Positions 2,537-58,000 are shown, counted from the stretch's first letter. The stretch is DNA of 64,000 nt from Candidatus Altimarinota bacterium (GCA_031407385.1 JANOIH010000004.1:4104-68103), one strand, 5' to 3'. A program made the numbers and translations. Notes: generated by a model not told the origin, from the letters alone.

Positions 2537-3154
2537 ATGATCACAACTATCAATACTGCTCTCTTGCCTCTGGAGAACATGGTAAAAAAATACCGAACAT
2601 ATATCGGATATGTGATTATATTATTAGCTTGTCTGGCTCCAATCTTCTTATACGGACAAGAGACACTGAAGTCGAGTGGAGAGAAGTCGATCCTCATACT
2701 CTGGATCATCCTCTGGATGCCGATATTGGCTCGTGTTCTCTGACTGCGTATCGTTGCTCAGATGCTCCCCCTGCGTAAGGAACTCGGTATCCTCATGGGA
2801 GTCCTCGCACTCGTCCATGGATTCTCTTTTATCATACCGAATCAAGCATATCTGGCTAGTGGAACTGCGTTCTGGGTAGATGGATCTCCGACATTCCTCT
2901 TGTTCGGTATACTTGCTATGTGGCTCTCGGTTCCCCTCACACTGACATCGTCTACATGGGCGATGCGTAAGATGGGCCGTCACTGGAAGACTCTCCATCG
3001 TCTCGTCTATATTGTCATCATATTCGCTGTGACTCATGTCGTGATACTGAAGTCGATGAGAGACTTCGAGATCACACCTATCATATTACTCGCGCTGTAC
3101 TTCGTATTCAAGGTGCTGGAGTGGAGAGGTTACAGCTTCGCAAAAAAAGAATAG
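2537..3154 (+). CDS. Ferric-reductase-like transmembrane protein (MsrQ/YedZ-like)
   Basis: Two fragments joined over TGA 2741-2743. Multi-TM, with the WKTLHRLVYIVIIFAVTHVV motif typical of the YedZ family. Confidence 0.6.
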
Positions 3155-3250
3155 AAAATATAAGGATATAGTCAATGTTGAAGCATCATTTTATTGACAA
3201 TAATAATATACTGAGTATATATACTCAGTTCCAACAACAGGGAGGTCAGA

Positions 3251-3394
3251 ATGATAGTATCTATTATTTTCTGTGCCTTCTTGGCATGGATGTTTGCTGA
3301 TAAGGTATTTGAGCGGCCAACCTTCTGGAAGAGGCTCGCTCTCATGGTGTTTCTTGTCATATCAGGACAAGTGGCATTCCAATATCAGTATTAG
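3251..3394 (+). CDS. Small (47 aa) membrane protein
   Basis: ATG preceded by GGAGG (3241-3245). Hydrophobic MIVSIIFCAFLAWMF. Followed by a terminator. Below the track's 60-aa cutoff. Confidence 0.4.
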   Translation: MIVSIIFCAFLAWMFADKVFERPTFWKRLALMVFLVISGQVAFQYQY

Positions 3395-3426
3395 ATCTTC
3401 GCATAAAAACGAAGATCTTTTTCTTT
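3393..3426. terminator. Bidirectional intrinsic terminator
   Basis: agatcttcg-N8-cgaagatct stem followed by a T-run. Lies between convergent genes. Confidence 0.6.
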
Positions 3427-3442
3427 TAATATGTTATAAAAA

Positions 3443-3697
3443 CTAGAACCCAATCTTCTCCATCAGTTCCCCTTTTTCATGGAGTGCTGCGATATCCGTA
3501 TATCCACCGAGACAAGTATCTCACACGAATATCTGTGGAACAGTTCGCAACCGCGACTTCGCGACGATCTCCATAAGGAGCTCATGATTATCTGTGACAT
3601 CAACCTCTTCGTACTCGGCACCGAGGGATGTGAGGAGATTCTTCGCGAGGACGCAGTATGGGCAATTGTCTTTGCTGTAGAGGGTGATTGTTTTCAC
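3443..3697 (-). CDS. Glutaredoxin (CPYC active site)
   Basis: VKTITLYSKDNCPYCVLAK...TVPQIFV-G(TGA)-DTCLGGYTDI...; 84 aa; GTG start; stop TAG. Confidence 0.75.
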
Positions 3698-3707
3698 TGT
3701 TTTTGGA

Positions 3708-4418
3708 TTATTGTTGGATCTGATCGAGTCCGAGGTGCATATTGGCGGGGAGTGCGATATCGATATATTTCGGATAGTCGAGCCTGACGGCTTGCATCGT
3801 CTCTATGAATTCTGTTACTGTAGTGGTATCCTTGATTCGAGTGTTGTATTTTTTCTCTTCTCCGACCGTACTCATCGTCTGTCCCGTGTAGTCATGCCCT
3901 GGGTAGATTCTCGTGGTATTGGGGAGTGTGTATATTTTTTGTTTGATTGACTCATAGAGTTGCTCTGCGGATCCTCACTGGAAGTCAGTCCGTCCCGTCT
4001 TGCGGATCAGGAGTGCATCACCTGTGAATATCATATCCGCAATCAAGAAACTGGTACACCCATCCGTATGTCCTGGAGTGGCGATAGCCTGGATCTGTAT
4101 TGCTCCAATAGTGAATATTTCTCCATCTTCGAGCAATATATCGGGTTTGGCAATCTGAGCTCACATTCACATCGCGATCTTGGCACCTGTTTTGGTACGT
4201 AAGAGTCCTGATCCAGTGATATGATCGGCGTGGATATGTGTATCGAGGATGTACGAGAGAGTGAGTCCGAGCTCCGAGAGCAGCTTGATATCACGATCGA
4301 TCTGATCCCGCACTGGATCGATGATGAGAGCGAGTTGCGTAGTCGCATCACCTATGATATAGGTGTATGTCGAACTCTTCTCGTCGAAGAGCTGGCGGAA
4401 GATGAGAGGAGAATCCAT
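3708..4418 (-). CDS. MBL-fold persulfide dioxygenase (ETHE1-like)
   Basis: YTYIIGD...DTHIHADHITG...ATPGHTDGC...GRTDFQ-G(TGA)-GSAEQLY...IYPGHDY. 236 aa with three in-frame TGA. Confidence 0.8.
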
Positions 4419-4424
4419 AAAAAT

Positions 4425-4769
4425 CTAGTTAAAATAGCTCGGTCTGAACGCCTCAGTGATCTTGATGATATCTGATTGGTCTCGATAGAGTTCTGCGATA
4501 CTGCCTGCTATATTGGTCGCCGTTTTACCTTGTCACTCGAGCCACGCACAGACTTGACCACTTCGCCCGCCAGTCCGACAAAATATATAGACAGGTCGAG
4601 AAAAATCAATCTCTCAAACACGAAACTCGATCGATGAGAGGGGAATCAGTTTGGCTCCTGGGATGCGTATCTGTGCCCACTCTCTCTGCTCACGGACATC
4701 GATGAGTTCGATATCTGTTGAATTCTTGAGAAGTATTTCGAGTTCTTTTGAGGATATTTCTTTATACAT
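4425..4769 (-). CDS. Rhodanese-like sulfurtransferase
   Basis: Active-site loop CRTGGRS. 114 aa with two in-frame TGA. Stop TAG. Confidence 0.8.
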
Positions 4770-4770
4770 A

Positions 4771-5196
4771 TTATTTTGAGGTCAATTTTTTATAGAAGAG
4801 CATACTCACTATCATCGAGACGAGGAATACGAGAATGTATGGATCGAGGAATACGATGCTCCCGATCGCTGGACCCGGACAGAGTCCGCCGATGCCCCAT
4901 CCGATACCGAATAGTGCTGATCCGATGATGAGCTTGGAGTCGATGATTCCTTTTTTTTCCCAAGGGAAGTGCCATCGGTCTGAGAAGTGTGGAGTTTCTT
5001 TTTTGGAGAGGAAAAAATGCCCGATCACCGATACCGTGACGGCTCCGATCATCACAAAAAGGAGCGTCGGATCCCAGCCATAGGCGATATCGAGAAATCC
5101 TCGAACTCGATCTGGCGAGGTCATATCCGAGAGTGTGAGGGCAAATCCGAAGAGGATACCCGAGATGAGGGAGACGATGTTGGTGACTGTGGACAT
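4771..5196 (-). CDS. YeeE/YedE-family sulfur-compound transporter half (DUF6691-like)
   Basis: 141-aa multi-TM ORF with GWGIGGLCPGPA motif. Stop TAA. Confidence 0.75.
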   Translation of the reverse strand: MSTVTNIVSLISGILFGFALTLSDMTSPDRVRGFLDIAYGWDPTLLFVMIGAVTVSVIGHFFLSKKETPHFSDRWHFPWEKKGIIDSKLIIGSALFGIGWGIGGLCPGPAIGSIVFLDPYILVFLVSMIVSMLFYKKLTSK

Positions 5197-7313: not shown

Positions 7314-8090
7314 ATGCCATCGTATGATAGTATCACAACTGATATTTTGACCCCTATGTTTGAGGGAAAGTATCCTAATCCTCTTGCTGTCGGTCAGCTC
7401 GCGGATTGAGTAATAAAGACCGTTGCTCAACAAGTTAGTGGAACATTACTTGTTGCAGATATTTGATGTTGAACAGATCCTATATCACCAAGAATTTTTT
7501 TAAGAAATGAGGCAAAATTTCTTTTAGTCGATAATAATCCTACAATTGAACTAGAAAAATCTCACCTCCCTGAATATGTATCATTGGCACAGGTTGATAT
7601 GAACGATGCAAAGGCCATGAATGCAGCAAAAAGAGAGTTCTTTCATACTCACAAATCTCTCGGAAAAGGTAGTTTTGACGTTGTTCTCCTGTCAAATATA
7701 CTAAATTACTTTACTGATTGAACTACTCCTTTGAAACCATGAGAGATATCTCCTGTGATGCGGAACTTTTGGGTTAACTTCGTAGAAAAAAATCTCTCAA
7801 AAAAAGGAGTAGTAATTATCCAAAACGGTGATAAGGGTGCACGGTATGAAAATTTAAAAGAAGAACAAGTAAATGATTATTTTAGTCCTGCAATGGAAAA
7901 TTTGATTACAAAAAATTTCATTGATTCGTACTATTTTTGAATAGCATTTACATGAACGTCTTCATCTAATGAAAATATATCACTTGAAGCGTCACCTTGA
8001 TTTTGTTCATTGAAGGAATACCAGGTAATTAAGAATGAATGAAAATTATTAAAAGCAGTGAATCTACGAGTATTAAGAAGAAAGTCGTAG
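7314..8090 (+). CDS. Class I SAM-dependent methyltransferase
   Basis: Motif I LLVADI-G-C-G-TDP, with both Gly encoded by TGA (7464-7466, 7470-7472). Under code 25 the ORF runs to TAG 8088-8090. The last ~50 aa are uncertain. Confidence 0.65.
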
Positions 8091-9650: not shown

Positions 9651-10217
9651 ATGGCCGAATCCCTCATACAAAAAGCAAAATCCTGAGATCTTCTCGCTTT
9701 TGGAGATCTCTATGATACTTCATACGATCGCGTGTACCGCTTTCTCTTTTACCGTACGCTCGATACCGTCGCCGCCGAAGATCTGATCTCTGACGTCTAT
9801 ATGAAGGCACTGAAGGGTATCTCACGGTTCCGCTGAGAGAGTGAGTGAGAGTGGTACTCCTGGATACTCCAGATAGCCTATACGACACTCATAGACTCCA
9901 CCCGCAGACACACCGATACCAGTCTCGACGAGCTCATCTGGGAGCCATCATATACGACAGATGTGGACGCGAGTATCGACGACCGAGACACACTCGCTCG
10001 CGTGCTCGACTACATGACCACTCTCCCCGAGCGGGATCGTGCCATCGTCATGATGCGTATCTGGGACGACCTCTCCTACGACGAGATATCGGCTATCACT
10101 GGAGAGTCAGTGTCCAACAGCAAGCAGATCGTCTCTCGCACACTCCAGAAGATATCGGCCAACGTCTCTGTCCTCTCACTCATCATATTCCTCTCTCTCC
10201 ATGCCCTCAACAAGTAA
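9651..10217 (+). CDS. ECF-type RNA polymerase sigma-70 factor
   Basis: Region 2 (FGDLYDTSYDRVYRFLFYR) and region 4 (LPERDRAIVMMRIWDDLSYDEISAITGESVSNSKQIVSR). In-frame TGAs. 188 aa. Confidence 0.8.
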
Positions 10218-11163
10218 CGACATATCCCGAGATATCACCTCACATCTCTCTCCCGAGTCACGCACTCCCGAGATGGAGGAGCTGATCCGTGTCGTCTCTA
10301 CAGTGCGGCCACAGGTACACATCGATCGCACCTATCAGAAGGAGCTCCGATCTCGTCTCATGAGCAAGACGTCCAAGAGATATATATTCTCCCTTCCTAT
10401 CTGGACAGGAGTCGTCTCGACTGTATTCGCGGCACTCATATGAGTATTCGCCCTATCGAGTATCTGGACTCCCCGTGAGGTGAGCAACGAGATCGATCCT
10501 ATCAGCTCCATGATCTCCGATACCCCTCAGACGTCCAGTACGACTGCCACACTCTCACAGAGTGAGATGCCGACAGTACGTGATATCCCATGAGAGTCGC
10601 AGAAAATCCTACACTCAGAGATCGTCACTCAGTCTACGCCCAAGTCTCTGAGTACAACAGAGACAGATATGCCCACGCCTGATATGATGATGCGCAGTAC
10701 TGAAGCTACCCCAACTGATATATCAGTTCCCATCGAGTGAGCTGCTATGATGACATCTATAGCACCATCACCTACTCTGGATACGACGCCTCTCGATACC
10801 GAGATCACGGATATGATGTCAGAGATCAGCTCGATCATCCATCCTCCGACTGTGACTATCGTGATCCCACCGTATCCTCGCCAGATGACTCTCTATGAGC
10901 AGGGTGTCGCCTTCACTCCAGCGGAGATCAGTTCCCAGACTGGTACATCACTCACTGTCCGCACCGTCGATACGATCTCTGATACCGCTCTGCTCCGCAA
11001 AAAAATCACCGCACTCACAACATGAGATCAGATCGTATGAGAAGGTCAGGTGATCTATCAGGAATTCACACGATCAGGTATCCATACTCTCGTCCCAGTC
11101 CTATCATATACTCTCACATCAGAGAAGGTGATATCGGTGAGTCTGGTGGTAGGATATGAGTAG
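10201..11163 (+). CDS. Putative anti-sigma factor (single-pass membrane protein)
   Basis: Overlaps the sigma gene by 17 nt. One TM (IFSLPIWTGVVSTVFAALI) and a Thr/Ser/Pro-rich extracytoplasmic part. Frame checked open with 5 TGA. Assignment is by position only. Confidence 0.45.
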
Positions 11164-11279
11164 GAGAATATATGCCGAGGATCCTCTTCGCTAGGAGGGG
11201 ATTTTCTTTTGACAAAAGGAGAAACTGGATAGAATAATGGCAGTACTCAGAGGACTATTTACAACACTAGCACTCCAAT

Positions 11280-12155
11280 ATGACTGATAAGATCTCTATT
11301 CGTTTTTTCGACAATCGTGAAGTGCGTGCCATCTGGGATGAGACCAATTCCAAGTGGTGGTTCAGTGTGCTCGATATCGTAGCTGTCCTCACAGATCAGG
11401 ATGACTATGCCAAGACTCGCAACTACTGGAAATACCTCAAGGCCAAACTAAAAAAAGAAGAAAATCAAGTGGTGAGTGCTACTACCCAGTTCAAAATACT
11501 TGCACCAGATGGAAAAAGTCGTCTGGCTGATATGCTCGATTACGATGGCATTATTACTCTCGGCAAGACCTTCCCTGGGACGAAGGCTAATCGGTTTATC
11601 GAGTGGTTCACCTACAGTGACGAGAGTATCGACGGCAAGAGCAAGTCAAAAGCCTATGCACTCTTCGAGAGCTCACTGATAGACAATATCGAAGTCGGAA
11701 CCATCACAGGATTGCAACAGATCCATGCCTATCTCTTCGGTGGACTCTATGGCTTCGCTGGGCAGATCAGGCAGAAAAATATCTCAAAATGAGGTTTCCA
11801 ATTCGCAGTAGCTCAGCATCTCGATACAACGCTCAGAGGGATAGCAGAGATGCCAGAGGACACATTCGAGAATATAGCACAGAAGTATATCGAGATGAAC
11901 ATTGCTCATCCATTTATGGAGGGCAATGGACGCAGTGCTCGTATCTGGCTCGATCTCATGCTGAAGAAAAATATAGAAAAATGTATCGACTGGAGCAAGA
12001 TAGGGAAGGATGAATATATGCATGCCATGATCGAGAGTCCGTCAGAGAGTAAAGAGATCATACAACTCCTCAGAGATGCCCTCACTGATGAGATCCACAG
12101 CCGTGAGATGTATATGAAGTGAATCGATTATTCGTATTATTATGAGGAGAACTAG
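11280..12155 (+). CDS. Bro-N DNA-binding domain fused to Fic (AMPylase-type) domain
   Basis: N-terminus [32 protein letters not shown] (Bro-N-like). Fic motif [15 protein letters not shown] at 11790-11792 and 12120-12122. Stop TAG 12153-12155. Confidence 0.8.
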
Positions 12156-12245
12156 GTTATAGCAAAAAGCCTAAACACTCCTCACATAGACTTCGCATAA
12201 TACTCAGTTCTCCCACCATATCATATGGTGAGGTAACCATTTTGG

Positions 12246-12270
12246 GGCTCGCTTGCGAGCCTCTTTTTTT
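12246..12270 (+). terminator. Intrinsic terminator
   Basis: ggctcgc-tt-gcgagcc followed by tcttttttt. Confidence 0.55.
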
Positions 12271-12345
12271 ATGATTCATATATTCGCGAAGAAATAGTTG
12301 GAAAAAGTGGAGAAAATCATAGAATAGGGCAAACAGTAAAAAAAA

Positions 12346-13499
12346 GGCTTAATGAACAAAAGTTGGTAGGTTTTTCATCTCAATTTACTCCTTCCAAAGA
12401 AGACTCAGTGCTAAACTGAGTCTTCTTTCTTTAGTGAGTCCACGATGAAGTTTTACCTTTGGTTTAAGATGAGAGAATATTCACTCTATTCGGTTACTCG
12501 TATTGATGATAGGATTCTTAAGTACAGAATGGTTCTTCTGTAGTGTTTGGATGAAATCCAAACACACGAAAAGCTGATCTCTACTTCTCACGAGTGAGTT
12601 ATATGCAAGATGCAATCGCGGGTGAATATACTTATCTTTGAGAGTTTTAGTGTCCAATTCTTGTTGCCTGAAGTCTGCATCATATTTTTTTCTGAACTCT
12701 GTGAGTTGTCACAAAAATGTAGATCTATCTGTATTTACCATTCCATGTGTTATCTCTTTGAGTTTTTTGTAGGATTCTATTCTGGGATATTTGAGGAGGT
12801 ATCTATCTATAGTAGCTATCTTGTGTGCTTGGCAGAGTTGTATTGGTAATCCATGGTAGTATTTGTGTATGGCAGTATCTATACCATTTCTTCCATCGAT
12901 CACTGCAAAGTGAGGATATGGATACCCGCCACGAGAGAGATAATGAAGGAGTACTTCGTAATCTTCTTTTGTTTCCTGAAGGATATGCTTGGATGCGAGT
13001 ATATCTCCAGTAATACCATCTATGGCTACAAGAAGTCACCACTGAGTATCTGAACCCTTTCGTCCGAAGAATGTGGCATCGAGGATGAGGACTGATGAAA
13101 CATATGAATCCAAAAGCGGATTGAGACGAATGTTGTGTTGCTCTTTGGATACTACTATCTTTCCTCTGAAGATAGTAGTCAGTTTTCTATGTATTGTTTT
13201 GATCGATACTCAAGCATCATTTGCAAGTTCAGCAAGGGTTTGCTTGTGGAGAGAATAAGAGAGGAAGAGTTGATGATTTTCTTGTATTTTTACCCCAGAT
13301 ACTCTTCTGGAACTCCGAAAGATATAATTACAATTCATACACTTATACCGTTGTCTTCAATCCATTTTACCAAACTTCTGAATCGATTTTCCCTGACATT
13401 TCTTACAGATTTTAATCATAAAAATAAAATAGAGAGGATAAACCTCTCTATTATGCGGAAAACTCAAGAAAAAACCTACCAGGAAATGTCCATTAAGCC
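12346..13499 (-). mobile_element. IS1595-like insertion sequence (1,154 bp)
   Basis: Imperfect ~30-bp terminal inverted repeats: ggcttaatgaac...ggtaggttttt (12346-12375) versus the reverse complement of 13470-13499. Flanked by A8/A7 runs, a possible 8-bp target duplication. Single transposase ORF. Confidence 0.75.
12385..13419 (-). CDS. DDE transposase with N-terminal zinc ribbon (IS1595/IS1-like)
   Basis: CKKCQG...RYKCMNC zinc ribbon; LDATFFGR, VIDGRNG and TSNRIE-G-IFSHLK motifs. 344 aa. Frame checked open with 5 in-frame TGA. Confidence 0.8.
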
Positions 13500-13529
13500 A
13501 CAAAAAATCCCCTTCGGAGGAAGAGGGGA
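13500..13529 (-). terminator. Intrinsic terminator of the R-M gene
   Basis: atcccct-N10-aggggat. The T-run on the minus strand is where the IS is inserted. Confidence 0.6.
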
Positions 13530-13548
13530 TATATAGATAGATGATAGA

Positions 13549-16500
13549 TTAGAGATATTTCTTCAGGATTGCCTCTTTCTGAGCTGGGATATTCGCGAGT
13601 TCTGATTCGAGTACAGAGATCTCTACATCTATCTGCTCGATCTCTGTGACTATACGCTGTTGTTCTGAGAGAAGAGGAAGTGGGATTTCAAAAGATGAAT
13701 ATTGTTGAGCATTGATATTTGGCTGAGCTGTTCCAGCTCTATTGTTCAATACCCAATTCTTATAGTAATCAGCTTTTAGTATAAAATTCAGAAAACTCGC
13801 ATCAAGAATATCTTCTTTGGTTCTAAATCGAATTAGATATCCTGCATATAATGCTTTGCCGAATTCTTCCCTATAGAAGAATGTCTTTCCTGCTGTTGCT
13901 CATGATCGTGCAAACAAAAAATCTCCATCACTTAGTATATATTTTTCTGCCACTGTTTCTGCTGTTTTCCATTCATTATTGAGCTTCCCACTATCGTTTA
14001 TATCTGTGATTCTGATATATCGATAATCTTTTTCTGGATTTCATTCTGTGGCACTTTCATTGGCTCCATACATTGGTTCGTGACATACCACACCAAGTTT
14101 GCAAAGATTATATTGTCCATAATAGCCATTAGCCCTCTTAACGATATCAGACTTATGTACTCCTAATTTCTCCTTGTTCTTAGCCTCTTTCTTCTCTAGT
14201 ATCTCCATCTCATCGATGATCTGTTGTTGTGTATCGAGAGATGGGAGTGGGATTTTGATATTTGATAAATCCTCACCATATACATGAGGCTGTGCCTGTC
14301 ATCTCTGCAATCCATATACCTCTGACTGAACTGTTTTCAGAAAAAGAGATATCAACTTTGTTGATATTATCGACTCATCTTTCGACTGTACTGTATTGCA
14401 ATCTGATGCAAAAATAGGAGTCGTGAAATAGTTCACAAAACCTGCATATGCACCTGATGCACTTATTGTGATAATATCACCTGTTCGATTGGACTCATTA
14501 TGAAAATAAGCTTCTTGTTGTCCTCATGCAATGACAGGAATAATTCAATCTTTGATTTTATCCTTTGTTATTGAAGTTCATTTCCATATCTTAGCGACTT
14601 CTCCGAGGGAGACTAATTTATTACTTTTCCAGATATCCTCATATTTAACTTTTTTTTTTACGGAAAGTGATATCGTTTTCTCAAACTCAGCTCGATCGAG
14701 CGTGAGCATATCGACGAGACTAACATGAGATATATACTGCTCTAGACTCGCAACTATAGGTCGATCATGGCGACCTGAGAATGCATCGAGGATATATGTA
14801 TTGACTCGCTCAGGACTCTCTACATCGGCAGGATCGAATAGGAGTGTACACTCATCGATCGTCTTGCCACGACGGATCGGATGGATACCCTCATCTCACT
14901 TGCGGTTCGAGAACTCATATCCGAGGAAATTTTTCTCATCTTGCTTGTCTCCGCTCTTCACAAGGACGATCTCTTGTCCGTATGCGAGGATATAGTAGAG
15001 TATCTTCTCTCGTTCAAGAGTGATGACCTGAGCGAGCCAGTCCTTTGGATTTTTGGATCTTATCTTTTTCTGGTAGTCGGTGTATATTTCATGGCTCTGC
15101 ATAGCCTCACTCGGCTCTCCAGATATGAGGCTGATATAGTCATCGAGCGATATCGTCTGCCAGACATGAGAGACATATTTCGAAATCCCATTTTCGAGGA
15201 CAGTATTATTTGTGAAGTTTGTCTTGATATTGATATCCTTATGATTCTGGAAAAAGTTCTTAATTCCAGTTTCGATACTTTCAAAATCATAGTTGCTCCG
15301 TCTCCTCAAGAATAATATCACTGTATTCGTCCCTGTTGCCATGAATGTCCCACTCCCGAGCTCGACGATCGCGACGAACTCAAAATACTTAAGAAGTATC
15401 TCACGAGTCTTGGTATATATGCCACCATTGGATAATATACTCGATGGGAGGATGATCGCAGCGATACCTCACTCTGCGAGGAGCTGCTTGGTCCGCTCGA
15501 TGAAGAGACTCTCTATCTGTGAGCTCTGATCCGTGAGGGCATCATAGAGGACGAAGTCTTTGTCTGCGGAGCGATTTTTCAAATTCCCTTTGCAAGCCGA
15601 TACGCTATACGGAGGATTGGAGAGAACAAAGTCAAATTGCCCGTTATCCTGAGTTCCTGGGATTATTTTTTTGAGCTTCTTCGAATAACTATCTGAATGC
15701 GTGAAACTATCGAGTCCGTCACCATGGATGACATTGGCGATACCATCACCATGGAGATAACACCCAACCTTGGTCGTCTTCACCAGACGATAGTCGAGCT
15801 CGACACCATAGATATACTCATACGCCCACTTGAACCCATGTCTTTGCCAGTCCTCGAGCTCTTGTCCTGCTGACCGAGGGAAATCCTTGACCTCTAGTGT
15901 CTGGATGATATTCTGGAGCTCTTCCATCGACTCAGTGAGGAAGTGTCCGCTCCCTGCAGCGTAGTCGATGATATTCGGGAGGAGCTCACCTCTGGCTCCT
16001 GACTTGAGTTTCTTCTCAGTGATCTGACGCATCGGGATACTCTTGCAGATGAATCTCGCGATCGGTACAGGGGTGAAGAATTGTCCTGCCTCTTGCTTGA
16101 GTCCTGTTGTGAGCAGGAGCTCGAAAAAGTCACCTAAAAATGGTTGTTTTTTTGCATAGCGAAACCTGTATCCCTGGAGAAGTTCGACTACTTCTTTGAG
16201 GACTTTTGCATTTTCTTCAAATGTCTCTTCATCGAATACTTCTTTGATAGCGAACTCGTTGTTCTTCTGGAGACGGATACGAGTGAATTCTCTGAGAATA
16301 TCTTGTTTGATCTTCTCATCAGTGATAGCCATACCGAACTTCCGATGGAAATCATCATCAGAAAGATCACTGATATCTTTTTCGAGAAAATCCTTCATTC
16401 CCTTCTTATAGAGGTCTGAGAGTCTCTTCTGAAATGATATCGAGTCATCTTCTCCTTCCTTCCACTGAAAATCTACTTCCTCGTCTTCGTCGGTACGATC

Positions 16501-17286
16501 TTCGTCTTTGATCTTGCAGAGAAAGAGTGTGAATATCTTATTGAATGCATTTGGCTTGTCAGATACAGCATTGTGACGGAGGATCTCGAGGAATCGATTG
16601 AAGATAAAAGAGCTATCCTCTTGTCGGATCTCTGCGAGATTGCCGAGGGAAAGTGCCTTGCTCTGGAAGTCATACGCTCGAGTCCAAGGCTCGAATATAC
16701 CATTCTGCTTGGAAAACTTGTTCCATCTATTGTAGAGATCCTCGGTATTGCTCGCCATCTGCCGATAGTCCTCTTCTACCTTGATGATCTCATTACGATA
16801 TTGTATTTCTTTGCCGTCGAACTGTGACGCATAGAGTACGAGGAACTCTGCACTACGATCTTGCTGAAGATATGAGAGGAGTTGTCCTCACTTTTTCTGA
16901 GTATTGAGCCATTCTTTATCGAACTCTCGTCCCCAGGTTTTGCACTCGATCATGAGATATGCCTGACCATCTCGACGGACAAGGATATCGAGCCATCCTC
17001 CTGCTGCACCATGTCCGACAGTGAATTTTTTCTCTAGAACGATATCTTCGGGACGATATCCCTTCTCAAGCAAACGATTCACGCACTCGAGTACAACCCA
17101 GTTCTCTTCTTGGGAAAAGTTGCGAGTCGTATCTCGTTCTGACTTGATCCGTTTGTTATAATCGATAGTTTCTTTTTCAAAATCTACTTCAATAGTATAA
17201 TTATCAAAAGATGTGAACTTCTTCACAAAAATCCCCGTAGTATTCTCTTTCGGTGTGAAACCAAGCTGTATGACGAATTTTTTCAT
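13549..17286 (-). CDS. Single-polypeptide restriction-modification-specificity enzyme (Type IIB/IIG, AloI/CjeI-like architecture), 1,245 aa
   Basis: One frame free of TAA/TAG for 3,738 nt, with 9 TGA. N-terminal PD-(D/E)xK-like GGWLDILV...LMIECK. gamma-N6A methyltransferase motifs FFTPVPIA, IIDYAAGSGHFL and LSNPPYS. C-terminal HsdS-like part has two TRDs and two conserved helices (LPSLDTQQQIIDEM, LPLLSEQQRIVTEIE). Confidence 0.8.
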
Positions 17287-17368
17287 ATAATGGAGTATAT
17301 GAATATGCTACAATAGTTCAAAAGAAAATGTATTCCGAAGTATACAACAATATGTATAATCTGTATAC

Positions 17369-17404
17369 AAAAAAATCTCCCTCTATTTCTAGAGAGAGAT
17401 TTTC
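17369..17404 (-). terminator. Intrinsic terminator downstream of the tRNA pair
   Basis: Minus-strand reading: gaaaatctctctctagaaatagagggagattttttt. Confidence 0.5.
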
Positions 17405-17420
17405 GCATATAGAGTATATA

Positions 17421-17496
17421 TGGTGGGCCCACCTGGACTTGAACCAGGGACCAATCGGTTATGAGCCGACTGCTCTAACCACTGAGCTATAGGCCC
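17421..17496 (-). tRNA. tRNA with CAU anticodon, most similar to tRNA-Ile2 (lysidine type); could be elongator Met
   Basis: Cloverleaf GGGCCTA/TGGGCCC, anticodon loop CTCATAA, encoded CCA. D and T arms resemble E. coli ileX. Confidence 0.85.
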
Positions 17497-17517
17497 GTTT
17501 TTTGAAGATCTGAAACA

Positions 17518-17610
17518 TGGCGGTGGATGAGGGATTCGAACCCTCGCGGCACCTTGCGGCACCCTACAGGTTTAGCAAACCCGCCTCTTCAGCCACTTGA
17601 GTAACCCACC
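17518..17610 (-). tRNA. tRNA-Ser (GCU)
   Basis: Anticodon loop TTGCTAA, long variable arm, encoded CCA. Confidence 0.85.
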
Positions 17611-17656
17611 GTGTGCGCGGATTATAGAAATAATCCGCGAAAATGCAAAAGAATTT

Positions 17657-19528
17657 TTACTGAACTACAACCACTACCTTCGGCTCCTTCCCTGCCTCAT
17701 GCAACATCACATCACATGCCTTGCGCTCGAGGTATTGGGAGAAGGCCATAGCATCCTTGAATCCTGAGAGATCCTTGAGTACTGAGTGTACACACTCATC
17801 GAGAGACTTCTCGAGTCCTGGCACAGTGGCGACTGGGGGAAGACCAACGGTATCGTACTTGATATGATAGCCGGTTGTCTTCTTCGAGATACCGATGACG
17901 AGGACTCCCTGAGAGGAGATCTGGTAGCGATCATGGAGCTCTTGCTCCTGAGTATAGCCGACCATACGACCATCGATGGTGATGAGCTTCTTCGAGACGT
18001 ACTGATCCGTCTCGCGCATCTCAGTCGCGGTGAACTCGAGGAGTTTTCCGTTACGCAGGATTGGGACGTTTGCTTTTGCGTAGCCGAGGTCATACGCGTT
18101 CCGTGCGTTCCCACGCAGCATATGAGGGAATCCATAGACAGGTACGTAATACTCTGGCTGGAGCATGGTGATCATCTTCTTGGTATCCTCTTCCTTCGCA
18201 TGTCCACCCGCGTGGATCTCGGACTCCTTGTAGTGGTGGATGCGTGGACCCTGCTGTGTGATGAGGTCGAAGAGTCCCTGTACGGCACGCTCGTTCCCCG
18301 GGATCACAGATGATGAGAATATGATCGCATCGTTCGGCTTCAGAGTCGTATCCTTGGATTCACCCGTGACGATACGCATGAGAGCCGCATAGCGCTCACC
18401 CTGCGCACCTGTACAACAGATAGTCACTTCGTTGTCTGGGAGCTTGGCCGCCTGTTCCATACTGATGATCGTCCCTGGTTGCGGTCGGACGTATCCGAGC
18501 TTGATGGCGATATCTATATAGTTGTTCATCGAGCGACCGAGAAGGACAACCTTGCGGTTGTACTTCTCAGAGGTCGAGATGATGAGCATAACACGATCGA
18601 TGATAGAAGAAAAGGTTGCCGTGATCACGCGACCTGGTGACTTCTCAAAAATCTCTTCGATCGAGTGGATAACTGCAGACTCCGAGATAGAAGAACCGAG
18701 GAGATGCGCATTCGTCGAGTCAGAGAAGAGTCCACGGACTCCACGCTTCCCGAGGGCTTCGATCCACTCATAGTTCGTCGATGGACGATTCGGGAGTGGA
18801 GTCTTATCGAACTTCCAGTCACCAGTATGGACGAATCGACCTACTGGCGTCTCGATGAGGAGACCGACTGAGTCAGGGATCGAGTGATCCACGACGAATG
18901 GAGTCACTTGGAAGTGCTTGCCCATCTGGACTGGACGATAGCGGACATACTCGGAGAGGTTCGTGAGAGTTGCCTTCATATCTCCTTGCTTCATCTTGAT
19001 GAGCTCGTATGCCATCGCGGTCGCATGGATCGGAGTATTGCGTCCGAGTTGTTCCATGAGGTAGTAGATCGCACCGATATGATCGATATGACCGTGGGTG
19101 ATACAGGTTCCCACGATCTTCTTCCCACGACAGTAGGTGAGATCTGGGATCGAACAGTTGATACCGTACTGGTACTGATCAGCGAACTGGAGACCCATAT
19201 CGATGATGAGCATCTCATCTTCGTATTCGAATCCCATACAGTTCAGACCGACTTGCTCAGTTCCACCGAACGGGATCACACGAAGTGTCCCCTTCTCGAG
19301 TGGCTTCGCTCGCTCCTCTGGGATATGGAGGAACTTCCTGAGTGCCTGAGTTGGCGTGAGGAATGGATATGACCTCTTCGGTCGGAAGCTATCCTCGAAG
19401 ACAAAAGAGTCACCAGGACGAAGGTTAGGGTTGATGTTTTTTCATGAGTCAAAGAAATTCCGGAATCCCGGTTTTCTCTCTCATTGTGGAGCAGTTCCAC
19501 TATTACTCTGGAAGCGTTTGTTACGCAT
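17657..19528 (-). CDS. rnj: Ribonuclease J (active MBL/beta-CASP enzyme)
   Basis: LRVIPFGG, CITHGHIDHIGAIYYL and beta-CASP/C-terminal domains. The 83-aa basic N-terminal extension is readable across two TGA. ATG 19526-19528. Confidence 0.9.
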
Positions 19529-19825: not shown

Positions 19826-21187
19826 CTATCTCTCGATCACGATCGGCATGACGACAGGAGTGCGACCAGTGAGGAGATAACAGTACTTGGTGATCTCGCG
19901 GCGCAGTGCCTGGACGAGAGTTCCACGATCCGTCTTCGGATTCTCAGTAATGATCTTCTCATAGGTGAGGCGGATCCCCTTCAGGATCTCCTTGTGTACC
20001 GCCATCATCTCATGTGAGTGGACGAATCCTCGTGAGTCGATAAATATGTGTCCAGCAATAGTGCGGGCACGCATATCTTCTTCGAGGGTGAATATGAGAA
20101 CTCCACTCTCAGAGAGCTGCTCACGATCACCGAGAGTATATCCGGCAACCACTCCGATCGAGTTCTTATCGAGAAAAAATGTATCGAATGTGAACTTCAG
20201 ACTATGACGAGTCATATCTGCTCCACGCAATGAGAGGATCTCTCCAGCCTCGATACGATCAGCACCGAGAGTATATCCGTCTGGTGTGCGGGCAAAAACA
20301 ATCGCTGAATCAGAGATCGTCCCTGAGAGAGGAAGATGAGAGAATACGATCTCTGTCGTTCCTGACTGGAGTGTGAGAGCACCTGCAGACTCGAAGGAAA
20401 GTGTCCCGAGTGTACGGCTACTCGTCCCATCAGCAAAGAGCTCAAAGAATCGGCACTGATCAAGAAACTCTGTGTCTGTTATGCTATTGCGGAACTTCGC
20501 GATAATATCACGAGTCGCATATATAGGAGGAAATCCGATGCCAGGCAGGATCGTCTGGAATGGACGAACATCGATACTGCCGTCCATGAGGATCCATGCC
20601 GAGAGTCGAGATGACTCTGATGCCACGAGCCGCATATCAGGGAATGTGACATACTCTTGGCCGAATCGGTTCATCGTACCAAACCCTGAACCCACGAGCA
20701 CTGTCGTATCATCACGAGTGATGAGGATCAGTGGATCGAGGGTCTCGACTGGAGAGAGTACTGTAAGACGAGTGACAGACATATCGTCTTCGCGAGGAAG
20801 AAAAGAAGACTTCATCCCGTCGATGAGACGACGAAGTGCCGGAGTCGTCGGTGCCTCTGGGGCAGTAGTTGCTCGCTGAACTGGGCGCTCGGCTCGCTCG
20901 ATCTGGGGCCTCGGTGCGCGCATCTCGGGACGAGGTGCATCGACAGGAGGACGAGGAGTAAAGACACGTGGTTCACGTGCTTCTACAGGACGTGAAACCT
21001 GAGGACGAGGTGCAGGTGTGCGCACAGGCGGACGTGCTGTACCAGGTGCATCGAGATCTCAGAAGTCATCAGTTCGCATCACACGAGCACTAGGCTCATC
21101 GGTGGGAGTAGTGGGAGTATGTGGAGTCCGAGAGTTCGAAGTCGCACCAAAAGCTATATCATGGCTATCGCCAAAAATATGATCCAT
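19826..21187 (-). CDS. RNase J paralog lacking the HxHxDH metal site (probable pseudo-enzyme) with Pro/Arg-rich N-terminus
   Basis: C-terminal part aligns to RNase J (SRGFVHSHEMM...TGRTPVVMPIVIE). The position of ITHGHxDHIG reads ILMDGSIDVRPF. Start uncertain: ATG 21185-21187, alternatives 21079 or GTG 21025. Confidence 0.7.
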
Positions 21188-21413
21188 AAAAAAGAAAAAT
21201 ATAAGGAGAAACAGTTTCCTCGGAGTGAGGACATATTTCCAGAATGTAAAATATCTATAAGAGATCACTCCACGTACCTTGGGAGGAATTCGAGATATAT
21301 ATGAGGAATCCTCACAACTCACTATCTTCTCTAAGAAAACACTGAGCTAGGGGGATATGGTGCACCTATAATATACCCACTTGTACCGTTCAACTTTTCG
21401 ATGAGTATATCGA

Positions 21414-22119: not shown

Positions 22120-22545
22120 CTAGGTTCCGAGATTATAGATAAAGTTCACGAGAATATCTACCAGTGGGAATGCTGTGAGGAGGAGGATGAGACCGATGAT
22201 TGCATATATAGCTGTGTTTTTGGCTGACTTGAGCTTCTCGTCATCACCTGCAGAGGTCGTATAGCGAATACCTGAGAATACGATCGCACCGATGGCAAAA
22301 AGCGCACCGAATGAGAGAACTCTCTCTGCGATCTTCACGATCAATTCCTTGACTCATTCTTTATTGGCTCATGATCCGAGTCCTACGGCGAGTTGTTTAT
22401 CGATTGATGTCTTTGAACATTTTTCCAAAAATTGACTAGCCGGGAGTCCTCATGTAGGATTACAATCAGGTTCTACTGCAAAAGTCGGCACGAGTGCCGT
22501 GAGAGCAAAAAGGGATACAAAGATGAAGAGGAGGAATCGAGACAT
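22120..22545 (-). CDS. T4SS-pilin-like small membrane protein (TrbC/VirB2-like), paralog 1
   Basis: Signal peptide MSRFLLFIFVSLFALTALVP, two TMs flanking TSAGDDEKLKSAK. 141 aa. Confidence 0.6.
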
Positions 22546-22549
22546 AATA

Positions 22550-22903
22550 TTATAGTGAGATGCGAGAAACAACAGATACGAAGGCGTATGATACTGCGAT
22601 ACAGACGAGACCAATAGCTGTGAAGGTGACGCTCTTCCATGCACGCTTCATCTTGGTCTCATCACCATCGGCAGTGAAGAGCTCATATGCGATATAGAGT
22701 GACCCGCCGATCACGACGATCGGGAGGACGACCTTCAGGAGGACTCACTGGATGAGAGAGAGTACTGCTATGAGTGTCATATCCTGGGTTGTCACTATGG
22801 TTCCATCAGGATACGTGCCAAACTGTGGCGCTACTGCAAAAGCAGATACAGTCGACAGTACACTCGCAAGCAATGTGAAGATGATATGTGTAACTATTTT
22901 CAT
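22550..22903 (-). CDS. T4SS-pilin-like small membrane protein, paralog 2
   Basis: Signal peptide plus two TMs flanking TADGDETKMKRA. 117 aa. Confidence 0.6.
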
Positions 22904-39481: not shown

Positions 39482-39558
39482 TGGTGCCAATGAGTGGGCT
39501 CGAACCACCGACCTCGGCGTTATGAGTGCCGTGCTCTAACCAGCTGAGCTACATTGGC
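39482..39558 (-). tRNA. tRNA-Met (CAU), elongator type
   Basis: Acceptor GCCAATG/CATTGGC fully paired, loop CTCATAA, GGTTAGAGCAC as in elongator Met, encoded CCA. Confidence 0.85.
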
Positions 39559-39747: not shown

Positions 39748-39822
39748 TGGTTGCGGAGGTATGAATCGAACATACGACCTTCGGATTATGAGCCCGACGA
39801 GCTACCACTGCTCTACTCCGCG
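39748..39822 (-). tRNA. Initiator tRNA-fMet (CAU)
   Basis: C1:A72 mismatch, GAGC/GCTC D stem, TCGGGCTCATAATCCGA anticodon arm. Close to E. coli tRNA-fMet. Encoded CCA. Confidence 0.85.
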
Positions 39823-52102: not shown

Positions 52103-53965
52103 ATGTCTCGCAACTCCTTCATCTGAGTCTCACTCATGGCGATGATCGCCATGAGTACTCTCGTCACGACGATATCAGCAGCTCCACCGATCAATCCTAT
52201 CGATCAAAGCCCGAATGTTCAAGGATTATTCGCTACCTATTTCCAGAATATGATCAACACACCCTGTGCTCTTGGATCTGTGATCTCAGGATTCTCATCT
52301 AGTGCAACTGATTATGGCAAGAATACGTGTGTATCTATCGTAACTACTCTCACAAACACGTATCCGACGCTCTTCGATATCACTTGGCTCAAAAATGGAG
52401 CCAATATCTCCTATATTGGAGGCAATGTGGGTATCGGAATAGCGAATCCTACAGCCAATCTCGAAGTTGCTGGTCAGATAAAGGTCACTGGAGGTGTGCC
52501 AGGGTTAGGCAAGTTCCTCACCTCAGATGCAACTGGTCTCGCGAGTTGGACAACATTCACGAGCGGATTGCCAGCAACAGCACTCTTTGGTCAGACTCTC
52601 AGATATGATGGTCTCTCTTGGGTTGCCAATAGTAATATATATGACAATGGATTCAACATCGGTATCGGTACGCTCTCCCCTCTCTACAAGCTCGAAGTCA
52701 ATGGTAAGATATGATCTCACACCACACTCTCCACAGACAACGATAATACAGTGACTACCAAGAACTATGTCGATGCGAGACTCGCAAGTCTCTGTACGAG
52801 TCTAGGTGGTACATGGAACAACGCCACAGACATATGTACTCCTGCAGTGACCTATAGTTGGCAATTGGGAACAACATATGGAGCATGTAGTGTTACTTGT
52901 GGTGGTGGGACACAGAGTGCACCAGCAGTATGCAAGCAGAGCAATGGAACTATAGTTGCTGATGCTCTCTGTGCTGGAGCCAAGCCTGCAGCTATGAGTC
53001 AGAGCTGTAACACACAGGCATGTATACCAGTAGTCAATGGAGGATGGTCAGTATGGGGAGGAGGATCATGTAGTGCGAGTTGTGGAGGGGGTACTATGAC
53101 ACAGACTCGTACTTGTAATAATCCTGCACCATCAGGTGGTGGGGCTAATTGCGGAGGATCATCAACACAGTCTATTAGCTGCAATACTCAAGCATGTGTC
53201 GTAGCAGTCAATGGATCATGTGGAGGATCAGCCAATACTTGTGGAGCTGGTAGTCCATCTGCATACTCAGCTGGAAGCTGTGGAGGATCTCAGACATGGA
53301 GTTGTCTCGGTTCAGGAGGAGGAACAAATGCTACAAGTTGTAGCATTGCCAATGCTGCATGTGCACTTGCTTCGTGTACCTATCCAGGTGGAACTGAATA
53401 CTGGGGTTCATGTGGCGTATCCATATGAGCGACTACTATTGCTCATGGAGGAAGTGCATGACCATTTACGAATACAGCCTGAGGATATGTGGGAAGTATT
53501 TCTTACTGATGTAATAATGGTACGTTTACTGTAGCGAGTCAATCTTGTAGTCCGGCTCCTGTGAATGGTTCATGTGGTGGTGGGGCCAATACTTGTGGGG
53601 CTGGTAGTCCATCTGGATACTCAGCTGGTTCGTGTGGAGGATCTCAGACATGGAACTGTCTCGGCTCAGGAGGAGGGAGTAGTGCTAATTGTAGTATTGC
53701 CAATACTGCATGTATCAACTATACTTATACGGCCTTCTCTGCTGCATCTGGGCAGGCATGTAGTGCGAGCCATCCTGGATATATAGAGGTAGCAATATGA
53801 TGTAGACGTGATGCAAATGGTGTATTCGACGGGTATGATCCATGGCCTATGCCAAATTGTCCATGAGCAGCAGATATGGCTGGTACACGGTTCCGACATT
53901 GTAAAGATCCCGATGTACCTGGCAGTTGGGATCAGTCCTTTGATGGAAATTGGATAGTATTTTAG
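52103..53965 (+). CDS. Secreted protein: tail-fibre-like NVGIG repeats, two thrombospondin type-1 repeats, two Cys/Gly-rich repeats
   Basis: 620 aa across 9 in-frame TGA. TSR consensus GGWSVWGGGSCSASCGGGTMTQTRTCNNPAPSGGGANCGGSSTQSISCNTQAC. Stop TAG 53963-53965. Confidence 0.7.
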
Positions 53966-55073: not shown

Positions 55074-58000
55074 CTACAGACTCATGATATACTTCATAAC
55101 TTCGACACTTTTCTCGATCTTCACACGCTCACGCTGCATGATGCGGATGATGTAGGCGAGAGCGCGAGATTCACGAGATGGGACGTTGAGAGTCTGGAGA
55201 GTAGTGGCATCAGAGTAGGCACCTTGGAGTGCTTCTGATTTTTGCGGAGCTAAGAGTATCAGAGAGCGAGTGATATTCTGTATGAGCTGACGTCCTGACT
55301 GTCGTATCATCTGGGCTCGATCAACAGATGATACTTGATCAGCCTGGGCTGATACGACTGCATCATGGATCGGAGCAAACAGGGAGATATATGAGTTGAG
55401 GAGGTATCCAACTGGCAGAGTCGTACCTGAGAGAGTTCGCTTCGAGAGGAAGAGTTCTGATACAAGTCCTGGAGTTGTATTAGTAGGAGAATTGGTATTT
55501 ACTGTATTCGGGAGATTCACCGTTGGGAATGATTGTGATCCTCCTCCGCCACCTCCTGGACCAGCTACTGGAATGGTCGAGATAACTGGTGGATGTGGAT
55601 CGATCACTGTGATCATCACAGTTACTGGAACTGTAGTAGATATGCCATCAGTCACCGTATAGGTGAAGTTGTCTGATCCAACATATCCGAGAGCTGGAGT
55701 ATAGACGAGGAGTCCTGTCGATGAGAGAATACCAGTCCCATACAGAGCTGGTGTCACGAGTGTGAAGGTGAGTCCGACACTATCGACATCAGTTGCGGTG
55801 AGTGAGCGAGTCAGTGAGTTATTGGTCTCGAGGTATCCAGTCAGTGAGCCTCCAGAGAGGGTCGTTCCTGAAGAGATCACCATGTTCCCTGTGACACTCG
55901 AACTCGATGGGAGAGAGACTGGAGTATCGTTCACACAAGTGACATCACTGATCGTCACCGTGGTGACTGCCGAGAGTGCGAGAGCCGTATCTCGTGCCTG
56001 GTAGGTAAATGTTACAGGGCTTACAGTACATGCATTCGCGGTAGGAGTAAATACCACTCCAGTTCCGACAACCGCGACACTTCCCCCTGATGCAGGTTGA
56101 GTGAGTGATGTGATCGAGAGGGGGTTATTTTCTACATCCGTGTCATTGGCAAGGACTGTGATCATAAGTGGTGTGTCCTCCGTTGCGGAGACAGACTCTC
56201 CAGTTGCAACTGGGGCATCGTTCACACAGGTGAGAGAGACAGAGATTGTTCCCGTATTGGAGAGCCCTCCGAGTGGATCTGTGATACGATAGTCCACTGA
56301 GTCAGCACCACAGGCGTTCGCGGTTGGAGTATAGACGAGGTTATTTCCTGAAGCGGTGACGGATCCGTTAGAACCATTGGTAAAGGTCGAGAGCGTGAGA
56401 ACTCCTCCTTCGACATCCGTGTCATTGATGACTGGTGAGATGATGAGTGTCGTATCTTCAGTTCCGGTAGTAGTATCGTTATTGGCGACTGGGAGATCGT
56501 TCATAGCGGTGATCGAGATACTTCCTGTGACGACGAGTGAGTCATTGACTCCGTCAGAGACATGGAAGGTGAAGGTATCTGAACCGTTCGTATTCGCAGT
56601 TGGCGTATATGTGAAGGCACCTGTTGATGAGAGAGTGAGTATTCCTTGTGTTACGTTGGTATCAAGGATATATGTGAGTGGAGTTCACTCGATATCTGAC
56701 CCCGTGAGGACATCCGCAAGTGGGGTATCTTCGGAGGTAGTGAAGGCTCCTGAATATGCTGTTGGAGGAGTATTATAGTTGTTTGGTTGGACTGTGATAT
56801 CTACAGTACTCGTGAGAGAGAAGAGGACCCCATCAGAGACATGGAAGGTAAAACTCTCAGCTCCCGTATATCCAACTGGTGGTGTATATGAGAATACACT
56901 TCCTGTGATGACCAGTGATCCAGTTGCAACAGGAGTATCGATGATATAGCTAAGTATATCTCCATCGATATCTGTCGCTGAGAGTGTCCCCGTGAGGACA
57001 TGTCCACTATCCGTCTCGATATTGCCTGTGACATTGTATGTTGATCCTGTGGATGTCGGAGCATCATTGACACAGGTGACAGTCATAGTCACGATACCCG
57101 TATTCGACAGAGATCCTGAGAGATCCGATATACTGTATGAGAACGTATCTATTCCACAATAGTTCGCGACTGGAGTATACGTCAGGAGATTCCCTGAGGC
57201 ACTAACACTTCCGGATGCAGCTTGTGAAAAAGCAACAAGACTCATGCTGTCTCCGAGATCTGGATCAGTGTCATTACCAAGTGGGGTTGTGTCGAGTGTT
57301 CCATCTTCTCCTACCGTGAAGCTATCTGCGATTGCTGTTGGAGCATCGTTCACAGCGGTTATCGTGAGAATTACGGTCTCGGTACTCGAGTTCAGGACAC
57401 CATCTGTGACATGGAAGGTAAAACTATCTGAACCGTTATAGTTCGCATCTGGCGTATAGGTAAAGATCCCTGTTGATCCGAGTGAGAGTGTACCGTTCGA
57501 TACATCTGCATCGAGGACAAAAGTCACTGGTGTCAGATCTGGGTCAGATCCGGAGAGAGTGGTATTGATCGCGACATCTTCTGTCGTGAGGAACGATCCT
57601 GAGTCAGCGACTGGAGCCTGATTCGTAGTAGATACAGTGATATTGACGACTCCAGTATTGGAGATATTCCCATCTTGATCGATGATCGAGTACTGTATTG
57701 TATCTGGCCCGAGGTAGAGAGAGTTCGGCGTATAGCGGATCTGATTCGCTACGATAGAAGCAGTCCCGCTCGTTGGAGCGGTGAATCCTGTGATCGTGAG
57801 CGTCTGTGCTCCATATGGTTGATCTGCATCGGTATCATTGGCGATGACGTCTATATCTGCAGTCGTATCCATCTGCACATTGACCGTGTCATCTGTCGCA
57901 ACTGGGACATCCTGTACAGCCGTGACGGTGAAGGACATCGTGGCTCCTGATGAGTCCACGATACCATCATTGGCGACGAAGTTGAAGCTATCTGAACCAT

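Follow-up and report, generated by a model that had tools for sequence, protein, structure and literature searches.

A Gracilibacteria-type gene with nine in-frame UGA codons at glycine positions probably encodes a single-chain Type IIB/IIG restriction-modification enzyme

Single-chain Type IIB restriction-modification (R-M) enzymes are defined by an N-terminal PD-(D/E)xK nuclease, a gamma-class N6-methyladenine (m6A) methyltransferase and a C-terminal specificity (S) part with two recognition domains (PMC4081073). AloI, PpiI, TstI and CjeI, which are also grouped as Type IIC/IIG, have this domain order, whereas BsaXI (PDB 8w0p), a Type IIB enzyme of composition (RM)2S, pairs a combined restriction and modification (RM) chain with a separate S subunit. 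Here we describe a gene of the single-chain kind in a 64,000-nt stretch of DNA from Candidatus Altimarinota bacterium (GCA_031407385.1 JANOIH010000004.1:4104-68103; the window, below, is this entire stretch). Positions 13549-17286 on the minus strand very probably encode one intact single-chain restriction-modification-specificity (R-M-S) enzyme of the Type IIB/IIG kind, in a Gracilibacteria-type host that reads UGA as glycine. We likened the predicted protein to AloI, PpiI, TstI and CjeI by architecture and size and compared its sequence to BsaXI instead. With 1,245 amino acids (aa) against the 1,251 aa of TstI (PMC4027205), and with nuclease, methyltransferase and S part in this order, it has the size and layout of the single-chain enzymes, as a preliminary description made from the sequence had proposed. 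The gene, its in-frame TGA codons and the parts of its product are as follows.

13549..17286, minus strand: R-M-S fusion protein, 1,245 codons plus TAA with UGA = Gly (translation; colinear homologues of 53-66% identity)
16888-16890, minus strand: first in-frame TGA, aa 133 (translation)
15469-71, 14896-98, 14578-80, 14545-47, 14524-26, 14299-301, 14041-43 and 13900-02, minus strand: the other eight in-frame TGA (translation)
16717..17286, minus strand: N-terminal PD-(D/E)xK nuclease domain, aa 1-~190, boundary approximate (BsaXI alignment, model)
16150..16716, minus strand: helical connector between nuclease and methyltransferase, aa ~191-379, boundaries approximate (alignment to the BsaXI connector)
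15286..16149, minus strand: gamma-class N6-adenine methyltransferase domain, aa ~380-667 (Pfam, BsaXI, motifs)
14647..15285, minus strand: stretch from methyltransferase to S module, aa 668-880, presumably a "knob" and linker (family conservation, position)
14119..14646, minus strand: first target recognition domain (TRD1) with conserved helix CR1, aa 881-1056 (Pfam, structure matches)
13552..14118, minus strand: second target recognition domain (TRD2) with conserved helix CR2, aa 1057-1245 (second Methylase_S stretch)

Under the standard bacterial code (table 11), the region falls into open reading frames (ORFs) at 16888-17286, 15469-16758, 14896-15342 and 13549-13749, all on the minus strand. 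Their upper coordinates are all multiples of 3, so the four share a single frame. Translated from 17286 to 13549, this frame comprises 1,245 sense codons and ends with TAA at 13549-13551; it contains nine TGA codons (aa 133, 606, 797, 903, 914, 921, 996, 1082 and 1129) and neither TAA nor TAG ahead of the terminal TAA. The remaining two frames of the same interval hold 27 and 35 TAA/TAG codons. TAA and TAG together make up 1.7% of the trinucleotides of the window, which puts the probability of 1,245 codons without either at ~4e-10, and the longest run free of both across 30 shuffles was 306 codons.

The residues at the interrupted positions were read from an alignment of the window protein with 52 homologues and three visibly recoded relatives. 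Among the 52 homologues, which are not visibly recoded, Gly was the majority residue at all nine TGA columns (44-51 of 52 sequences at seven sites, 28/39 and 33/52 at two sites in the variable TRD2). Trp appeared none to four times per column, most likely contributed by other relatives that had been translated with code 4. Six relatives of the Gracilibacteria clade gave 28 alignment columns in which one or more sequences have TGA; the partner codons there were GGN in 85 of 121 cases and TGG in none. The placement of all nine TGA codons at Gly columns, together with the alternation of TGA and GGN without TGG, establishes UGA = Gly (code 25) for this gene at the level of codon comparison. With TGA taken as Gly, the ratio of nonsynonymous to synonymous substitution rates (dN/dS) of the RM part was 0.085 against locus L001 and 0.044 against locus L005, both ~95% identical at the protein level; as judged by these rates, the gene is shown to be under purifying selection. 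The four fragments of the preliminary description thus join into one 1,245-aa frame, in agreement with its proposal and with the full-length single-chain homologues described below.

Reading UGA as Gly is also consistent across the window. The number of ORFs of at least 150 aa rose from 43 to 130 once only TAA and TAG counted as stops (a redundant list that includes overlapping ORFs), and the closest genome record, at 94% identity, is "Candidatus Gracilibacteria bacterium isolate GFS_11518". In the SufS gene of the window, one of the three TGA sites is informative on the code: the first lies in the HRG motif, where B. subtilis SufS has G and the best PDB match has A. Both TGA codons of the RNase J gene fall within a non-conserved N-terminal extension and are therefore uninformative on the code. 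No tRNA-Gly(UCA) was present among the eight tRNAs found within the 64-kb window. Three genes for tRNA-Met(CAT) lie in the window, at 17421-17496, 39482-39558 and 39748-39822.

The N-terminal domain is a BsaXI-type PD-(D/E)xK nuclease with a complete catalytic tetrad. Its residues E85, D100, E114 and K116 align (phmmer against RM.BsaXI) with BsaXI E73, D90, E105 and K107, which mutagenesis has shown to be essential (PMC11997821); in the family, all four residues of the window protein are invariant across 88 sequences. The motifs LDILV and IECK lie at aa 99-103 and 113-116. An AlphaFold model of the TGA-free segment, aa 1-132 only, had a predicted local distance difference test score (pLDDT) of 91 and an alpha-beta-beta-beta-alpha core. 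Searched against the PDB with Foldseek, it matched only three entries significantly, all of them BsaXI (best 8w0p_A, E = 6.9e-6, probability 1.0), on which the modelled domain superposes. The Pfam family HSDR_N_2 also matched aa 61-150, below its cutoff. The connector that follows aligns with that of BsaXI (residues 193-348; PMC11997821) and contains the family-invariant motif SDKPNAFNKIFTLFLCK.

The methyltransferase carries its motifs in gamma-class order: FFTP (403-406, within FFTPVPIA 403-410), DYAAGSG (441-447, within DYAAGSGHFL 441-450) and NPPY (557-560), all three invariant across the family. Pfam assigned N6_Mtase to aa 383-708 (E = 1.6e-26) as well as Eco57I (E = 2.2e-14), and the domain matched RM.BsaXI aa 337-628 with E = 3e-39. 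Taken as a whole, the match to RM.BsaXI reached E = 2.7e-47 with the single sequence and 1.9e-64 with the family profile, which makes BsaXI the best solved relative, aligned through nuclease, connector and methyltransferase. The stretch aa 668-880 is presumed to be a knob plus linker by analogy with BsaXI and predicted single-chain RMS enzymes, in which a knob follows the methyltransferase (PMC11997821). The PADLOC model REase_MTase_IIG (PDLC03624; 1,271 positions) matched the table-25 translation over aa 2-1040 with E = 4.7e-251. Pfam, sequence and profile searches of the PDB, Foldseek and PADLOC thus all support the R-M-S order, and both the nuclease and the methyltransferase named in the preliminary description were recovered.

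The C-terminal part matches Type I S subunits (1yf2, 1ydx, EcoKI and EcoR124) and S.BsaXI. Two Pfam Methylase_S stretches are present. The first (aa 890-1035) matches 7eew 468-613 and 1ydx, and its CR1 helix starts at LPSLDTQQQ (aa 1014); the TRD2/CR2 part matches 1yf2, the EcoKI S subunit, 3okg and S.BsaXI, with CR2 starting at LPLLSEQQ (aa 1203). HsdS structures match both halves of the HsdS-like module with its two TRDs and two conserved helices. TRD similarity did not yield a recognition sequence, as the S subunits matched in the PDB, those of EcoKI and M. jannaschii, were too distant. The S part (13552-14646) has a G+C content of 36.5%, compared with 44.3% for the RM part (14647-17286) and 45.6% for the window, and contains six of the nine TGA codons in 30% of the gene length. 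Nuclease, methylation and recognition parts are all present on one intact, selected polypeptide.

Comparison of close relatives indicates recent TRD reassortment within Gracilibacteria, as read from aligned sequences. In L001, TRD1 is that of the window protein but TRD2 differs (L001 3620-4202; window 13552-14646), and L005 has a different TRD1 (L005 4370-4637), while the RM parts of both are ~95% identical to that of the window. P0003 and P0004 have both TRDs in common with the window protein. Modular reassortment is known for the specificity modules of Type I and Type IIB systems, and has been exploited experimentally in AloI, PpiI and TstI (PMC4081073).

The single chain is the norm of the family and not a coincidence of the window. 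More than 5,000 homologues were found at E <= 1e-10, and most of the best 120, on which this statement rests, are single chains of 1,206-1,268 aa with 97-100% query coverage and 53-66% identity; many, of 1,215-1,260 aa and from standard-code bacteria, are colinear with the window protein along 100% of its length. The hits stem from Flavobacterium, Pedobacter, Leptospira and Bacteroidales, among others, and genome contigs with relatives also belong to CPR (candidate phyla radiation) phyla, Omnitrophota, Elusimicrobiota, Bdellovibrionales, Vampirovibrio and DPANN archaea. Database labels for these homologues read only "restriction endonuclease subunit S", "N-6 DNA methylase" or "type I restriction enzyme M protein". 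This uncharacterised family (e.g. Flavobacterium, Leptospira, Pedobacter; PDLC03624) agrees with the window protein in architecture and invariant motifs over the full length, whereas the latter belongs to a UGA-recoded sub-clade specific to Gracilibacteria. The recoded sequences cluster apart, with RM parts 71-94% identical to each other and ~60% or less identical to standard-code members; P0008 represents a separate recoded lineage. Synonymous divergence between the sub-clades is saturated, which, together with the separate clustering, indicates that the gene has long resided in the UGA = Gly lineage and is no recent import. The enzyme is in this sense an ordinary, full-length representative of an R-M-S family that is very large and has already been modelled, and code-25 recoding of Gracilibacteria is likewise already known.

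At least eight of the best 120 homologues (P0001, P0002, P0008, P0009, P0012, P0013, P0016 and P0017) carry Trp at otherwise invariant Gly columns or are truncated. The Trp residues of these database relatives are a code-4 artefact of source pipelines that translate TGA as Trp. Near-full-length hits all exceed 1,200 aa, and the shorter ones are truncated; P0012, for example, is a code-4 mistranslation of 1,125 aa that starts inside the nuclease domain. A search of metagenomes with the junction sequence gave 17 loci; only three (L035, L036 and L045) were true relatives and the others chance matches. The scan of IMG/VR gave only seven loci and nothing to suggest that phages are the main carriers of the family. 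The IMG/VR locus L055 (IMGVR_UViG_3300033142_002332) holds a decayed, frameshifted RM copy at ~3001-5010 of a 60-kb contig; this copy ends at the RM/S junction (SLSGKKK, A8), with unrelated sequence beyond.

By analogy with characterised relatives, the enzyme would act in the manner of a Type IIB system. The two TRDs of its S module would read a bipartite asymmetric site, as extrapolated from BsaXI, TstI and AloI (PMC4081073, PMC4027205, PMC11997821), and the methyltransferase would place m6A on one adenine per half-site of the host DNA. On unmethylated foreign DNA, protein oligomers would bridge two sites and the N-terminal nuclease would cut at short, fixed distances from the site, probably to both sides of it; this two-sided cleavage of a bipartite site is inferred from the relatives. 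The gene appears to stand alone, as in the AloI/TstI type, with promoter-like sites and a terminator-like hairpin of its own, and should not need a partner methylase. In contrast to that type, its nine UGA = Gly codons mean that it could not be expressed as it is in a standard-code host.

Several observations weigh against the assignment to an intact single-chain enzyme of this kind. BsaXI, the closest solved relative, keeps S as a separate subunit and carries a "paddle" domain, of which two residues are required for BsaXI cleavage. In sequence and profile searches, no match of the window protein to the C-terminal paddle was seen, the BsaXI alignment stopping at about chain residue 640. Other differences from BsaXI are that identity within the nuclease domain is only ~30% and that the S part of the window protein is fused to RM, giving a ratio of 1:1:1 rather than 2 RM : 1 S. 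Finally, two close relatives are broken at a poly-A tract in the RM/S junction, so that the ON state of the window gene may be unstable. The preliminary description had counted internal stops giving separate subunits against a fused enzyme: the window contains none, while the two relatives, frameshifted at this tract, do. Even so, the separate specificity subunit of the BcgI/BsaXI two-chain type is not what is seen here, as RM and S of the window lie in one frame, and the split between RM and S in L001 and L002-L004 is a frameshift that leaves S without a start codon.

The tract itself underlies an alternative that would modify the single-chain assignment.

14650..14659, minus strand: A10 homopolymer, codons GTA AAA AAA AAA (V-K-K-K, aa 876-879), candidate slippage site (sequence)

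It is the longest homopolymer of the 64-kb window and lies exactly at the RM/S junction. Slippage at this site could make the enzyme switchable: in replication, it could turn the S fusion on or off (phase variation), or, in transcription, it could give rise to RM-only in addition to RMS chains. We consider such a switch unlikely, and more doubtful still that the A9-A10 run at the RM/S boundary of the family is a functional slippery site, by either type of slippage. Only 49% of the Lys codons of the gene are AAA, yet the junction reads AAA AAA AAA. Across phyla, 19 of 26 family loci have a run of at least nine A at the junction, as opposed to 0 of 20 KKK sites elsewhere in these ORFs (Fisher p = 2.5e-7, for loci that are phylogenetically non-independent), and another homopolymer of at least 9 occurs in only 2 of the 26 ORFs. 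All in-frame relatives from Gracilibacteria have GTA AAA AAA AAG, that is A9, at this position. However, KKK is conserved as a linker motif, and the genomes of most homologues are AT-rich, with 75-90% AAA; in these, A9 is present roughly as codon bias predicts.

The broken relatives bear on this alternative in both directions. L001, with the same TRD1 and a 95% identical RM part, has one A fewer (A9, ~3611-3619) and is shifted by -1; its RM frame stops after 883 aa, while the S part, in another frame and without a start codon, remains open over 194 codons. L002-L004, from three independent samples, are also shifted by -1 at the tract (L002 ~12668-12676), and their S remnant is cut short. A one-base homopolymer difference between metagenome assemblies could nevertheless be an assembly error, and the truncated S part of L002 suggests that this copy may simply be decaying. 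Unlike the poly-G tract of the C. jejuni enzyme Cj0031, that of the window is poly-A; it coincides exactly with the RM/S domain boundary and is a candidate switch. Phase-variable Type IIG enzymes are known, and Cj0031, which is reported to be a combined R-M enzyme toggled by an in-gene homopolymer (PMC4889913), offers a possible parallel to A10. If slippage did occur in transcription, it could restore the 2 RM : 1 S stoichiometry of two-chain Type IIB enzymes and thereby address the "imbalance" noted for the single-chain enzymes (PMC4081073). On the other hand, the active form of TstI produced from a synthetic gene is a homotetramer (PMC4027205), so an RM-only isoform is not needed.

Assignment of the protein to another class of system, as a Type I, Type ISP or methylation-associated defence system (MADS) component, is very improbable. 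The S module is Type I-like, and NCBIfam gave weak matches to MAD2 (E = 1.6e-35), MAD5, hsdM and hsdS; the scores, however, stayed far below the cutoffs for MAD2 (122 vs 720), MAD5 (53 vs 400) and hsdM (TIGR00497, 42 vs 243), and the PADLOC Type IIG match is far stronger. No ATPase, helicase or translocase domain was matched in the protein with Pfam, NCBIfam or PADLOC, and no helicase or ATPase gene was found adjoining the R-M-S gene, whose neighbours are tRNAs, RNase J and an insertion sequence (IS).

Standard-code translation, which gives fragments of 132, 429, 148 and 66 aa plus smaller ones, would suggest hsdS, hsdM and hypothetical genes that are separate or decayed, or an R-M locus pseudogenised by nonsense mutations, and public pipelines do mis-call such genes; this we regard as barely credible and reject, given that every interruption is a TGA at a Gly column, that relatives have TGA at other Gly columns, that dN/dS is as low as 0.04-0.09, and that the gain in long ORFs and the closest genome both speak for a Gracilibacteria code. 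Hardly any weight attaches either to UGA = Trp (code 4), for which the W in database translations of P0001, P0002, P0016 and others could be cited: the Gly columns of homologues not visibly recoded and the absence of TGG partners reject it, and Trp would take the place of invariant glycines, G606 among them.

In the surroundings of the single-chain R-M-S gene, the following features were annotated.

17421..17610, minus strand: tRNA-Met(CAT) and tRNA-Ser(GCT), directly upstream of the R-M-S gene (tRNA search)
17294..17367 (17367-17339 and 17321-17294), minus strand: two promoter-like sites just upstream of the ATG at 17286 (consensus matches only)
13509..13526, minus strand: terminator-like hairpin and T-run, starting 23 nt past the stop codon (sequence)
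12346..13499, minus strand: IS element of 1,154 bp (inverted repeats and transposase)
11280..12155, plus strand: Fic protein adenylyltransferase of the NmFic type with an N-terminal Bro-N-like domain (NF046029, Pfam)

The IS element is apparently complete. Its terminal inverted repeats of 30 nt are imperfect (12346-12375 and 13470-13499, 80% complementary) and enclose a transposase gene (12385-13419) with five in-frame TGA codons, whose product belongs to the Zn-binding variant of the IS256 family (NF048019 E = 1e-59, score 202 vs cutoff 150). The 8-nt flanks are A-rich (aaaaaaaa / acaaaaaa) and may represent a target-site duplication. The Fic gene was assigned by NF046029 (E = 9.7e-77, score 257 vs cutoff 230) and Pfam Fic (E = 3.6e-13), with a weak Bro-N match.

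Upstream of the two tRNAs lies RNase J, and further neighbours encode YceG, a ferric-reductase-like membrane protein, PPK2, an HI0933-like flavoprotein, an RNase J-C protein and a protein resembling a type IV secretion system (T4SS) pilin. The RNase J-related genes are adjacent on the minus strand (17657-19528 and 19826-21322); one encodes a full RNase J and the second only RNase_J_C behind a proline-rich N-terminal region. The pilin-like gene at 22120-22686 (minus strand) encodes a small membrane protein of the T4SS pilin / TrbC-VirB2 family (Pfam PF18895, E = 1e-10).

Pfam and NCBIfam searches of the neighbours within the window found no DNA methyltransferase adjoining the R-M-S gene; the only other methyltransferase-like ORF (7314-8090), a weak, generic Methyltransf_31 match below cutoff, lies ~5 kb beyond the IS and Fic. 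Within 9800-17700, no direct repeat of the tRNA 3' end was convincing as an island boundary. The IS immediately downstream and the Fic gene beyond it are both present as the preliminary description had stated, whereas the defence-island-like context it drew from them is weak, with only an IS256-type element and a Fic/Bro-N gene amid housekeeping genes. The locus is a small mobile-looking insertion beside tRNA genes and not a defence island.

Read with the standard code or with code 4, this gene and its relatives appear in databases either in pieces or with Trp where a catalytically conserved Gly belongs. Gracilibacteria keep a lineage-specific clade of combined R-M enzymes and diversify it by TRD shuffling, and these genes are locked behind a genetic-code barrier. 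For enzyme discovery, a recoded version is a candidate for a new Type IIB specificity. Current understanding of such enzymes is otherwise unchanged, the conserved poly-A tract at the RM/S junction being the sole open lead.

Two further ORFs of the window encode repetitive proteins. The first (52103-53965, plus strand) corresponds to a Gly/Cys-rich protein of 620 aa with a hydrophobic N-terminus and eight in-frame TGA codons, in whose translation we read the near-exact internal repeat NGSCGG.ANTCGAGSPS.YSAGSCGGSQTW.CLGSGGG. The second (55074-60329, minus strand) is an ORF of 1,751 aa with five TGA codons; its product is highly repetitive and Thr/Ser/Asp-rich, with many tandem units of ~100 aa discernible by eye, and may be a surface protein.

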